Below, piece by piece: positions 1,241-4,703 of a stretch of DNA of 64,000 nt. How positions within the stretch are numbered: the stretch's first letter is position 1; the number at the start of each line of letters is the position of its first letter. The stretch is from sequence record OQ378934.1. One strand, given 5' to 3'. Both the position numbers and the translations under genes were made by a program. The notes beneath the pieces are model-generated. The model was not told the origin of the DNA. It saw nothing but the letters and a program-made list of their open reading frames with translations, and made no database searches. The stretch is from Escherichia phage LH2.

Positions 1241-2365
1241 ATGCAAGAACTTTTTAACAATTTAATGGAACTATGTAAGGATTCACAGCGTAAGTTTTTT
1301 TACTCAGATGATGTAAGTGCATCTGGAAGAACTTACAGAATTTTCTCATATAATTATGCATCTTATTCTGATTGGTTACTTCCAGACGCATTAGAATGTC
1401 GTGGAATTATGTTTGAAATGGATGGAGAAAAACCGGTAAGAATTGCTTCTCGTCCTATGGAAAAGTTTTTTAACTTGAATGAAAATCCATTCACGATGAA
1501 TATCGATTTAAATGATGTTGATTACATTCTAACAAAAGAAGATGGGTCTTTGGTATCAACATATTTAGATGGTGATGAAATTCTGTTCAAATCAAAGGGT
1601 TCAATCAAATCCGAACAGGCTTTAATGGCTAATGGGATTTTGATGAATATTAATCATCATCAGTTGCGCGACAGACTTAAAAAATTAGCCGAAGATGGAT
1701 TTACTGCTAACTTTGAATTCGTTGCTCCGACGAATAGAATCGTTCTTGCTTATCAAGAGATGAAAATCATTTTATTGAATATTCGTGAAAATGAAACAGG
1801 CGAATACATTTCATATGATGACATTTATAAAGATGCTGCTCTTCGTCCATATCTAGTTGAACGATACGAAATTGATAGTCCTAAATGGGTTGAAGAAGCT
1901 AAAAATGCAGAAAACATCGAAGGCTATGTTGCTGTGATGAAAGATGGTTCTCATTTTAAAATTAAGTCTGACTGGTACGTATCTCTTCATAGTACAAAAA
2001 GTTCGTTAGATAATCCAGAAAAATTGTTTAAGACTATTATTGATGGTGCATCAGACGATCTTAAGGCAATGTATGCTGATGATGAATACTCATATAGAAA
2101 AATTGAAGCATTTGAAACGACTTATCTGAAGTACTTAGACCGAGCTCTGTTTTTAGTTCTTGACTGTCACAATAAGCATTGCGGTAAGGATAGAAAGACT
2201 TATGCAATGGAAGCGCAAGGCGTTGCTAAAGGTGCTGGAATGGAACATCTGTTCGGTATCATCATGAGCCTTTACCAAGGGTATGATAGTCAAGAGAAGG
2301 TCATGTGTGAAATCGAACAGAATTTTTTGAAAAATTATAAAAAATTTATCCCAGAAGGATACTAA
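1241..2365 (+). CDS. rnlA: RNA ligase 1 (Rnl1, gene 63), 374 aa
   Basis: [21 protein letters not shown]... with KEDGSL adenylation motif; SD agagga upstream; matches T4 gp63. Confidence 0.9.
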
Positions 2366-2368
2366 GCT

Positions 2369-2398
2369 GTTTACAAGTCCCTCGTGTTGTGTTATAGT
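2369..2398 (+). promoter_or_regulatory. T4 early-type promoter (GTTTAC -35, 18 nt spacer, TATAGT -10) upstream of alc, embedded in an inverted repeat
   Basis: gtttac at 2369-2374, tatagt at 2393-2398; near-identical element repeated at 14886-14915. Confidence 0.5.
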
Positions 2399-2426
2399 AG
2401 ACTTACTGACATAACATGAGGACTTT

Positions 2427-2933
2427 ATGATGGATTTACAGCTTATTACTACTGAAATGGTCGTTGAAGCATACGGTGATACTACAGATGGGATTTCTGT
2501 ATTTAAAGGAAATCGTCGAGTTGGATATATCACCGATCTTAAGAAAGATTTAGCTAAGCAAGTCAAGCGGAAAACGACCATTAAAGAATATCGAAATCGT
2601 CGTCTTGAGCAAGCCCGTGATATGCTTCCTGATGCAGTTGAGGAGATGAAAGTCTTTTTAGAAAATCAGCTTGCGAAATATGATTGTGATGTGTTCATTA
2701 ATCAGACTCAACCTAATGTTCATATCAATAATTGTAAATGCTACATCATCGTTAATCCTTTGACGGGAAAACATCGTCTTGGAATTAGTAATCCAAATCG
2801 TAGCGCATCGGATATGGCAGAAGATGTTGCGGCATGCTTTAAAATTTCTAAATCTCCGGCGGAACATCATATTTTAATTAACGGTCTTTCTCAAGACGAT
2901 ATTATAGAGGTTATTAAAACTTTATGCATGTAA
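2427..2933 (+). CDS. alc: Alc, inhibitor of host transcription (168 aa ORF)
   Basis: Size and position after rnlA as in T4; SD gagga 6 nt upstream; early promoter upstream. Confidence 0.75.
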   Translation: MMDLQLITTEMVVEAYGDTTDGISVFKGNRRVGYITDLKKDLAKQVKRKTTIKEYRNRRLEQARDMLPDAVEEMKVFLENQLAKYDCDVFINQTQPNVHINNCKCYIIVNPLTGKHRLGISNPNRSASDMAEDVAACFKISKSPAEHHILINGLSQDDIIEVIKTLCM

Positions 2934-3277
2934 GTAATTTTACAGCTGGATTGCTATTACTTGTAATAGCATTTGGCGGAACATCTATTATTTTAAAAAA
3001 TAAGGTAGAAAGATTAGAAACATCAGTTACTGAAATTACAAAAACAGCCAATGAAAACGCCTTAGCATTAAATAATTTGCGAATTCAGTATAATTATATT
3101 GATGCGATGAATAATAAAAATCGTGAGGCAATTGCTGCTATTGAGCGTGAAAATGAAAAACTGCGCAAAGATGCAAAGAAGGCGGACGTGGTGGCTCATA
3201 AGCCAGGATTGGTTGAAAAACAAATCAACAAATCCTTCAACAAGTTCGCAGAAGACATCCAGGACCTTTCTAAATGA
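2924..3277 (+). CDS. pseT.3: Small membrane-anchored coiled-coil protein (pseT.3-like), 117 aa
   Basis: N-terminal hydrophobic helix FTAGLLLLVIAFGGTSIIL then charged helical region; start overlaps alc stop. Confidence 0.5.
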   Translation: MHVSNFTAGLLLLVIAFGGTSIILKNKVERLETSVTEITKTANENALALNNLRIQYNYIDAMNNKNREAIAAIERENEKLRKDAKKADVVAHKPGLVEKQINKSFNKFAEDIQDLSK

Positions 3278-3573
3278 TTAAACTATCAGCAGTAATATTA
3301 TCTATTGGTCTTCTAGTTGGTTGTTCGACAAAGCCTCTAGAAGTAAAGAAAGAAACAGTTCATCCTAATTGGCCAGTACAAATAAAGTCATACGATGAAG
3401 CTAAACTATCTTGGCAGGTTAAAGTTATTGATGGTAAAGCTTGGGTCGGTATGCCATTCGAAGATTCTCAGGAATTTCGTATTTGGCTTAATGATGTAAA
3501 ACGATATGTACATGACCAGAAAACTATGATATGTTATTATCGTCAAGAGTTAAAAGAGGATAAATGTAAATGA
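3274..3573 (+). CDS. pseT.2: Predicted lipoprotein (pseT.2-like), 99 aa
   Basis: Signal peptide with lipobox MIKLSAVILSIGLLVGC; ATGA overlap with upstream gene. Confidence 0.5.
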   Translation: MIKLSAVILSIGLLVGCSTKPLEVKKETVHPNWPVQIKSYDEAKLSWQVKVIDGKAWVGMPFEDSQEFRIWLNDVKRYVHDQKTMICYYRQELKEDKCK

Positions 3574-3797
3574 TTTCATGGCATCAATTTGAACATCTCA
3601 AAGGATTGATTTATGAATCCGAGATGGCTGCAATGATTTATGGACGCCAGATTCAGCGGTTAGAATCTTTACCTCCAACTAATGATGTTTTATTAGCTCA
3701 ATCACGTGCTAATCTCAAAAATGAATATCAAAATAAGTGGGGTAAAGCATCTAAAAACCTACATGATTATATTCAATCATTAGTTGAGAAAAAATAA
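3570..3797 (+). CDS. pseT.1: Hypothetical small protein (pseT.1-like), 75 aa
   Basis: ORF translationally coupled between the lipoprotein ORF and pseT. Confidence 0.45.
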   Translation: MISWHQFEHLKGLIYESEMAAMIYGRQIQRLESLPPTNDVLLAQSRANLKNEYQNKWGKASKNLHDYIQSLVEKK

Positions 3798-4703
3798 ATG
3801 AAAAAGATTATTTTGACTGTTGGATGTCCTGGTTCAGGTAAGAGCACTTGGGCTCGTGAATTTATTGCTAAAAATCCTGGATTTTATAATATCAATCGTG
3901 ATGATTATCGTCAATCCATCATGGGTCATGAAGAACGTGACGAGTACAAGTATACCAAAAAGAAAGAAGGTATCGTAACTGGTATGCAGTTTGATACAGC
4001 TAAAAGTATTCTGTACGGTGGCGATTCTGTTAAGGGAGTAATCATTTCAGATACTAACCTGAATCCCGAACGTCGCCTGGCATGGGAAACTTTTGCCAAA
4101 GAATACGGCTGGAAAGTTGAATATAAAGTGTTTGATGTTCCTTGGACTGAATTGGTTAAACGTAACTCAAAACGTGGAACTAAAGCAGTACCAATTGATG
4201 TTTTACGCTCAATGTATAAAAGAATGCGGGAATATCTTGGTCTTCCGGTATATAAAGGGACTCCTGGTAAACCAAAAGCAGTTATTTTTGATGTTGATGG
4301 TACATTAGCAAAAATGAATGGTCGCGGTCCTTATGACCTTGAAAAATGTGATACCGATATTATTAATCCCATGGTTGTTGAACTATCCAAGATGTATGCT
4401 CTTATGGGTTATCAAATCGTAGTCGTTTCAGGTCGTGAAAGTGGAACTAAAGAAGACCCAACGAAATATTATCGTATGACCCGTAAATGGGTTGAGGATA
4501 TTGCTGGCGTTCCATTAGTTATGCAATGTCAACGCGAACAAGGTGATACCCGTAAAGATGATGTAGTTAAAGAAGAAATTTTCTGGAAACACATCGCACC
4601 GCATTTTGATGTGAAATTAGCTATTGATGACCGAACTCAAGTAGTTGAAATGTGGCGTCGTATCGGTGTTGAATGCTGGCAAGTCGCCTCGGGAGATTTT
4701 TAA
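3798..4703 (+). CDS. pseT: Polynucleotide 5'-kinase / 3'-phosphatase (Pnk), 301 aa
   Basis: Walker [10 protein letters not shown] near N-terminus and HAD-type phosphatase motif FDVDGTLA in C-terminal half; matches T4 PseT. Confidence 0.9.

Follow-up and report, generated by a model that had tools for sequence, protein, structure and literature searches.

The classic countermeasure of phages to PrrC-type anticodon nucleases is the two-enzyme transfer RNA (tRNA) repair pathway of T4, which nowadays belongs to textbook knowledge. The break made by the nuclease leaves a 2',3'-cyclic phosphate and a 5'-OH, which are healed by the polynucleotide 5'-kinase/3'-phosphatase (Pnkp) and afterwards sealed by a phage RNA ligase; T4 Pnkp, unaided, converts RNA ending in a 2',3'-cyclic phosphate (RNA>p) to RNA-OH by way of RNA-3'p, in a processive reaction of four steps (Das and Shuman). 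In a 2025 paper on PARIS, the repair of PrrC-cut tRNA was ascribed to T4 Pnk together with RNA ligase 1 (Rnl1). Two further T4 systems are relevant here: the spanin pair PseT.3/PseT.2, taken by Kongari et al. (2018) as the model example of a two-component spanin of the "separated" type, and the anti-CBASS protein Acb1, an enzyme acting against the antiphage system that signals through cyclic oligonucleotides (CBASS). The present analysis concerns a stretch of 64,000 nucleotides from Escherichia phage LH2 (OQ378934.1), referred to as the window, in which counterparts of all these genes are found, namely rnlA and pseT at a distance of 1.4 kb, with pseT.3, pseT.2 and pseT.1 between them, and rnlB and 57B much further downstream. 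It is very probable that the window contains one two-enzyme RNA repair module (Rnl1 and Pnkp), with the spanin genes lying between its two members, an orphan RNA ligase 2 (Rnl2), and a 57B gene that encodes Acb1.

The sealing enzyme is represented by rnlA (Table 1). Its product gave an equivalog-level NCBIfam match to TIGR02308 over residues 2-374 (630.7 bits; cutoff 242.25), contains PF09511 and the C-terminal tRNA-specificity domain PF20819 T4_Rnl1_C (E = 1e-39, residues 253-374), and matched the PDB entries 2c5u (E = 6e-253) and 5tt6. In comparison with T4 Rnl1 the identity is 98.4%, with six conservative substitutions, none of them at a checked catalytic position. The motif I lysine, K99 in KEDGS, is present, as well as R54, K75, F77, G102, K119, E159, E227, G228, K240 and K242, which we take to be the essential positions of the T4 mutagenesis literature. 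The sealing of PrrC-cut tRNA-Lys in vivo is known for the T4 enzyme, and by analogy the same would hold for this near-identical protein.

The design of a knockout experiment deserves some care at this gene. The K-12 host does not carry PrrC. In the transposon data of the HIDEN-SEQ preprint, the N-terminal part of T4 rnlA was essential on K-12 and the C-terminal domain was dispensable; in addition, the RefSeq annotation of T4 gives the protein a further role as catalyst of tail-fibre attachment. Because the N-terminal part is required on hosts devoid of PrrC, a fitness cost arises even there and a full rnlA knockout is a confounded anti-PrrC test. Therefore, the C-terminal tRNA-specificity domain, or pseT, would be the clean target.

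The healing enzyme, the product of pseT, combines a kinase domain (PF13671, E = 1e-23) with a phosphatase domain (PF25109, E = 5e-59) and matched PDB 1ltq with an E-value of 1e-206. It is 98.0% identical to T4 Pnkp, again with six conservative substitutions and none at a checked catalytic position. Both active sites are intact: the kinase retains the P-loop GCPGSGKS (9-16), D35, R38 and R126, and the phosphatase retains DVDGT at 165-169 together with S211, K258, D277 and D278. Within this last motif D165 serves as the nucleophile and D167 as the acid-base residue (Das and Shuman). The HIDEN-SEQ preprint lists T4 pseT as non-essential on K-12, with 68 of 70 TA sites hit. In its screens on uropathogenic isolates, the highlighted depleted genes include the PseT orthologue of phage Bas37, in keeping with pseT as a clean target.

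The earlier note on this DNA, made by a model from the letters alone, had read Rnl1 and Pnkp as the classic PrrC countermeasure, and this reading is borne out by the family and structure matches, by the intact state of both enzymes and by the literature. The same genes, in the same order and on the same strand, are found as in the T4 pathway, with both Rnl1 domains retained; the six substitutions per protein are the difference, and no functional consequence is expected from them. After a PrrC-type anticodon nuclease has cut tRNA-Lys, Pnkp would, by analogy with T4, phosphorylate the 5'-OH and strip the 2',3'-cyclic phosphate, and Rnl1, directed to tRNA through its C-terminal domain, would rejoin the anticodon loop, so that translation of the phage late proteins would be restored.

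In this lineage the two repair genes are parted by the functionally unrelated alc, by pseT.3 and pseT.2, and by pseT.1. The arrangement in other phages speaks for rnlA-pseT being the actual module and for the genes between them being passengers specific to the lineage, because the two are adjacent in Acinetobacter phage Acj61 (nrdB-rnlA-pseT, with neither alc nor the spanin genes between) and nearly so in the RB49-like Enterobacter phage EC-F2, where the gap is occupied by three small open reading frames (ORFs) only. Linkage was also observed in a mycobacteriophage, whose RNA ligase is encoded 3.3 kb from a Pnkp homologue; in Aeromonas phage Aeh1, pseT.3-pseT.2 stand upstream of pseT and rnlA is not nearby. 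The genetic pairing of healing and sealing enzymes is also seen in the bacterial Pnkp1-Rnl-Pnkp2 system, whose Pnkp1 (PDB 4xrp) shares full-length kinase-phosphatase homology with the phage protein (E = 7e-40, residues 3-301); however, that system is cellular and made of three proteins, whereas the phage has a two-gene module with a T4-type Rnl1.

Table 1. Positions of the discussed genes and of one promoter-like site in the 64,000-nucleotide window (aa, amino acids).
Feature	Position	Strand	Length (aa)	Product or description	Supporting match
rnlA (gene 63)	1241-2365	+	374	RNA ligase 1, sealing enzyme of tRNA repair	
Promoter-like site (sigma-70/T4-early type)	2370-2398	+		TTTACA-17-TATAGT with TG extension	Consensus match only
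alc	2427-2933	+		Host (cytosine-DNA) transcription inhibitor, outside RNA repair	PF17527, E = 8e-91
pseT.3	2924-3277	+	117	i-spanin, inner-membrane subunit, Rz equivalent	PHROG 739 "Rz-like spanin", E = 6e-38
pseT.2	3274-3573	+	99	o-spanin, outer-membrane lipoprotein subunit, Rz1 equivalent	PHROG 812 "Rz-like spanin", E = 3.5e-43
pseT.1	3570-3797	+	75	Soluble, predicted two-helix hairpin	PHROG 2347 (unknown function)
pseT	3798-4703	+	301	Polynucleotide 5'-kinase/3'-phosphatase (Pnkp), healing enzyme of tRNA repair	
rnlB (24.1)	28267-29271	+	334	RNA ligase 2, nick-sealing ligase	
57B = acb1 (anti-CBASS protein 1)	63649-64000	+		2H-fold cyclic-oligonucleotide phosphodiesterase; cut by window end	

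A second RNA ligase is encoded about 23.6 kb from pseT, where rnlB closes the unit hoc-24.3-24.2-rnlB and runs convergent with gene 24. The presence of Rnl2, which the earlier note had reported, was verified through an equivalog-level match to TIGR02307 (458.1 bits against a cutoff of 197.15), through PF09414 and the Rnl2 C-terminal domain PF18043 (E = 8.5e-24), and through PDB 2hvq (E = 4e-225). The protein shares with T4 Rnl2 the adenylyltransferase domain, the C-terminal domain and 98.5% of its residues, with K35 (in EKIHGT), H37, R55, K225 and K227 present; K35, R55 and K227 are named as functional residues in the Rnl2 literature. The kinetoplastid RNA-editing ligase 1xdn was matched as well, although the phage enzyme differs from the editing ligases in having no known physiological substrate: the solved complex of Rnl2 is with a nicked duplex, and its biological role outside kinetoplastids is stated as unknown. 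That Rnl2 is an RNA-sealing enzyme can be said with fair confidence, and its membership of the anti-PrrC pathway is not established.

A role for Rnl2 as a second anti-defence arm, compatible with the single Rnl1-Pnkp module, can be envisaged, in which it would use ends healed by Pnkp against a host nuclease that nicks double-stranded or structured RNA. Such a role would agree with the nicked duplex of the solved complex, with the conservation of every checked catalytic residue, with the vacancy left in the literature as to the function of the phage enzyme, and with the dispensability of T4 rnlB on K-12, where the HIDEN-SEQ preprint counts 84 of 84 TA sites hit, as is usual for accessory or anti-defence genes. 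However, rnlB is unlinked to both pseT and rnlA, no cognate nuclease is known, and a conditional phenotype of rnlB or of its Bas37 orthologue is not highlighted in the text, the legends or the supplementary comparison rows of those screens. On balance the second arm appears unlikely, and the broader proposition that the window holds two distinct RNA-sealing arms, with Rnl2 as a counter-defence ligase supported by its conservation and its dispensability on K-12, is considered decidedly unlikely. What the window does contain is a two-gene repair module and one orphan ligase.

Between the members of the module lie two genes which can be identified, from the features of their products, as lysis genes situated inside the string and unrelated to RNA repair. 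PseT.3 begins with an N-terminal transmembrane helix at residues 6-24 (a 19-mer with a mean Kyte-Doolittle value of 2.24), and its remainder is charged; the protein has no cysteine and gives weak matches to Pfam families of the coiled-coil type. PseT.2 has the lipobox LVGC at residues 14-17, with Cys17, and two further cysteines, Cys87 and Cys98. The genes follow each other in the order i-spanin, o-spanin with a 4-nt ATGA overlap, and neither is embedded in the other. Both the RefSeq record of T4, which labels each of pseT.3 and pseT.2 an Rz-like spanin, and the independent annotation of 235Ecol030PP, a 97%-identical phage in which they are the inner-membrane and outer-lipoprotein subunits of a spanin, carry the same assignment.

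With identities to T4 of 98.3% for PseT.3 and 99.0% for PseT.2, the likeness to the T4 pair extends to the 117-residue Cys-less type II membrane protein, the 99-residue lipoprotein, the same cysteines and the 4-nt overlap, and no difference of note was found. In comparison with Rz/Rz1 of lambda, the T4-type spanin genes are not embedded and stand away from the holin and endolysin genes. In the work of Kongari and others, complementation of a lambda Rz/Rz1 double amber was obtained with the T4 pair, and C87 as well as C98 proved to be essential in PseT.2 of T4 (Kongari et al., 2018). In the plaque-based library of the HIDEN-SEQ preprint, T4 pseT.3 was scored as essential, with 5 of 28 TA sites hit, and pseT.2 as having a strong fitness defect, with 6 of 30. 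By analogy, the two proteins would bring about fusion or disruption of the outer membrane at lysis. The earlier note had called the small ORFs that separate alc from pseT, given there as membrane and lipoprotein ORFs, uncharacterised; this description does not apply to PseT.3 and PseT.2, which are experimentally validated spanins in T4, and it remains fitting for PseT.1.

The product of pseT.1 is 98.7% identical to its T4 counterpart. Eleven close homologues were found, mostly on metagenome contigs, the named ones being from an Escherichia phage and from a 353-bp contig of Xanthomonas pisi. The AlphaFold2 model is confident (predicted local distance difference test score, pLDDT, of 94.5), with helices at residues 4-33 and 40-73, and a Foldseek search of the PDB with this model returned nothing at E<=1e-3, the matches being of generic coiled-coil, BAR and designed-helix type. 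That PseT.1 assists the function of one of the adjacent gene products, whether as a regulator of the spanin complex or as a partner of Pnkp, is suggested by its translational coupling on both sides (the ATGA overlap with pseT.2 and the stop abutting the pseT start), by its conservation among the eleven homologues and by the predicted helical hairpin, a form commonly taken by small binding proteins. Against this stand the uninformative fold search and the dispensability of the gene in T4, which, unlike the spanin genes, tolerated insertions at all 17 of its 17 TA sites on K-12 according to the preprint. Furthermore, pseT.1 is absent from Acj61 and Aeh1, both of which retain pseT, with Aeh1 retaining the spanin genes too, and the 55-aa ORF at its position in EC-F2 is merely 28% identical, so that homology is not established. 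An accessory role of this kind is regarded as very improbable, and PseT.1 was left without an assigned function.

The fourth gene of interest, 57B, lies about 59 kb from pseT and some 34 kb beyond rnlB, beside the tail-fibre chaperone gene 57A. The window holds 117 of its approximately 151 codons, and the 117 encoded residues are all identical to residues 2-118 of T4 gp57B. In T4 the protein begins with MMEF (ATG ATG); since the upstream codon in the window is ATA (63646-63651), the start is placed at the second ATG only, one residue later, and the numbering is reduced by one, which is the difference from the T4 protein. A match to PF23474, "Anti-CBASS protein Acb1", covers positions 1-110 of the 144 of the profile (E = 1.2e-49, 168.2 bits against a cutoff of 27), and the Acb1 structure 7t26 was matched with an E-value of 7e-47. 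The catalytic tetrad is present as HST (43-45) and HIT (112-114), and these correspond to H44, T46, H113 and T115 of T4. The 2H phosphoesterase fold, which the earlier note had recognised, is accordingly upheld by both HxT motifs and by the Acb1 structure match. In a Pfam search at E<=0.1, Acb1 was the sole family recovered for 57B, with none of the LigT, 2',5'-RNA-ligase or cyclic phosphodiesterase (CPDase) type, and the NCBIfam scan of 57B returned nothing.

The T4 protein was identified through its activity by Hobbs and others as an enzyme that degrades cGAMP, cUA and cAAA. In that study, Acb1 has a 2H fold, an HxT/HxT tetrad formed by H44, T46, H113 and T115, and a C-terminal lid, the lidded pocket enclosing the cyclic dinucleotide; H44A/H113A served as the catalytically inactive control, and lysates of a T4 acb1 deletion were assayed for cleavage of cyclic nucleotides. 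Cleavage yields a linear oligonucleotide that bears a 3'-phosphate, by way of a 2',3'-cyclic phosphate intermediate that is hydrolysed (Hobbs et al., 2022). In the HIDEN-SEQ data, T4 57B is non-essential on K-12 and depleted specifically in the presence of a CBASS operon. The window protein shares its tetrad, H43/T45/H112/T114 in its own numbering, with Acb1 of T4 (gp57B) and of Erwinia phage FBB1 (7T26/7T27), and this HxT/HxT active site would cleave the cyclic oligonucleotide second messengers of CBASS. With repair enzymes of the LigT and Trl1-CPD type it has in common the 2H fold, two HxT/S motifs and a metal-independent 2',3'-cyclic phosphate chemistry; however, repair-type 2H enzymes leave a 2'-phosphate, whereas the product of Acb1 carries a 3'-phosphate, and the substrate of Acb1 is a cyclic oligonucleotide held under a lid.

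The name "RNA ligase" is attached to 57B in the RefSeq record of T4, in many RefSeq records of T4-like phages and in PHROG 755. This name is a propagated legacy mis-annotation and not a tested activity, and it invites the reading of 57B as an RNA repair gene. The earlier note had gone in this direction, and counted Rnl1, Pnkp, Rnl2 and 57B as a four-component toolkit in which 57B would open 2',3'-cyclic phosphate RNA ends. Although the 2H fold with both HxT motifs, the related chemistry of the Acb1 intermediate, the frequent partnership of 2H enzymes with RNA ligases in other viral repair systems and the database names themselves lend it some appeal, the toolkit is extremely improbable in view of the Acb1 family match, the identity to a T4 protein found by its degradation of cyclic nucleotides, the conditional essentiality of 57B against CBASS only, the distance from pseT, the legacy transfer of the name, and the ability of Pnkp alone to take RNA>p to RNA-OH. 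Indeed, because Pnkp itself removes 2',3'-cyclic phosphates, a separate cyclic phosphodiesterase is unnecessary, and the role of 57B as an RNA end-healing enzyme is not sustained. The claim of four activities within the window can be kept if the two active sites of Pnkp and the two ligases are counted, but not as a repair set of four proteins. The possibility of a four-gene operon or island was also considered and rejected, the genes lying in three separate places and transcription units.

The expression of the genes from alc through pseT was examined with regard to the claim, made in the earlier note, that the small ORFs are co-transcribed with their neighbours. The genes form a co-oriented string of overlapping or abutting members: alc and pseT.3 overlap by 10 nt, pseT.2 and pseT.1 share an ATGA as pseT.3 and pseT.2 do, the stop of pseT.1 is directly followed by the start of pseT, and pseT and cd.5 overlap by 31 nt. 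No terminator-like site was detected on the + strand of positions 1-7200. The arrangement part of the claim is thereby supported, and alc through pseT may reasonably be taken as co-transcribed. The promoter-like site of Table 1 is the top-scoring + strand match in 1-7200 and falls within the 61-nt spacer between rnlA and alc; promoter-like sites in this region are not enriched over shuffled sequences. The late-promoter motif TATAAATA is enriched in the window (20 occurrences against 9.3 expected) and absent from the + strand of 1-8041, so that nothing in that interval points to the spanin genes having a late promoter of their own. For the MotA box of middle promoters, 11 occurrences of the pattern were counted in the window against 7.5 expected, with none in 1-7200.

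As to its origin, the window can be placed by alignment as a segment of a Tequatrovirus (T4-like) genome, lying on the strand opposite to that of the T4 map. By using the reverse complement of T4 73,900-140,500 as the blastn target for the whole window, eight co-linear blocks with 95-99% identity were obtained, which run from T4 138,704 down to 74,056, so that the window begins within the nrdB intron and ends within gene 57B, and the overall DNA identity to T4 is about 96%. A megablast search with window positions 1-7200 returned 988 phage records, 493 of which had at least 80% query coverage, and the top ones among the matches listed, Yersinia phage phiD1 and Escherichia phage 235Ecol030PP being two of them, were Tequatrovirus genomes with an identity of about 97%. 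The order denA-rnlA-alc-pseT.3-pseT.2-pseT.1-pseT-cd.5...cd is the canonical T-even early-gene string. The ORFs named in the earlier note were all recovered on the + strand, at the positions it gave, in both the ORF list and the raw sequence, and the E-values of their matches lie well outside what chance would give. Eight proteins compared pairwise with T4 are 97-100% identical, with Alc at 97.0%. Scans of the whole window for tRNA and tmRNA genes found none, and the Rfam scan returned no family; the tRNA cluster of T4 is located just past the 3' end of the window.

The gene contents are, in this sense, already known, every gene being a 97-100% T4 orthologue, and roles are experimentally established for all the genes discussed except PseT.1 and Rnl2. 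The practical value resides in correcting the labels of 57B and of the membrane protein/lipoprotein pair beside pseT. Gene identities, domain architectures and intact catalytic residues are observed directly in the window, and the enzymology and phenotypes would carry over from T4 proteins of 98-100% identity. Several points weigh against the reading of one repair module with spanins in between, an orphan Rnl2 and an Acb1: all function is transferred from work on T4, albeit at that level of identity; the co-transcription of alc through pseT is deduced from the gene arrangement; the HIDEN-SEQ transposon data come from a preprint; and the window stops 34 codons short of the end of 57B, so that the substrate lid is not covered. 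T4 has this lid region (approximately residues 145-152), as do those close relatives whose sequences span the window.

Apart from these genes, some differences from T4 were noted along the window. It opens inside the nrdB group I intron: as judged from the way a 97%-identical phage is annotated, the 3' end of an ORF for an intron endonuclease of the I-TevIII type occupies positions 1-112, and nrdB exon 2 occupies 280-750. The intron gave no Rfam match, presumably since it is cut by the window edge. Downstream of pseT, an insertion of 519 bp relative to T4 (window 5437-5955) carries a 175-aa ORF (5434-5961, + strand) between cd.3 and cd.2, where T4 has a spacer of about 70 bp with an early promoter. 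This ORF matched PHROG 3710 (unknown function) with an E-value of 3e-55 and no Pfam family, and it is found as a hypothetical protein in phiD1 and 235Ecol030PP. Just downstream of rIII, toward 30.9, about 155 bp (8563-8717) are unaligned to T4.

At window positions ~9138-9143, T4 128,805-130,238 has no counterpart; this stretch of about 1.4 kb takes in the greater part of 30.4 and the whole of 30.5-30.7 and ends in 30.8. The neighbouring gene 30.3 (9183-9641, PF08010), which a 2025 preprint names adfN and describes as an anti-DarTG enzyme, is kept. Further along, about 114 bp (23064-23178) replace some 217 bp of T4 around uvsY.-1 and the spacer between uvsY.-1 and uvsY.-2. Regarding homing endonucleases, segD, which in T4 takes up some 0.8 kb between gene 23 and gene 24, is absent (window ~30596-30657), and segE and segC are apparently kept within the co-linear blocks. 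Finally, an insertion of approximately 0.9 kb relative to T4 lies between gene 5 and 5.1 and carries a 288-aa ORF on the - strand (57494-58360), which has no Pfam match at E<=1e-3 and matched PHROG 314, "homing endonuclease", with an E-value of 1e-25.

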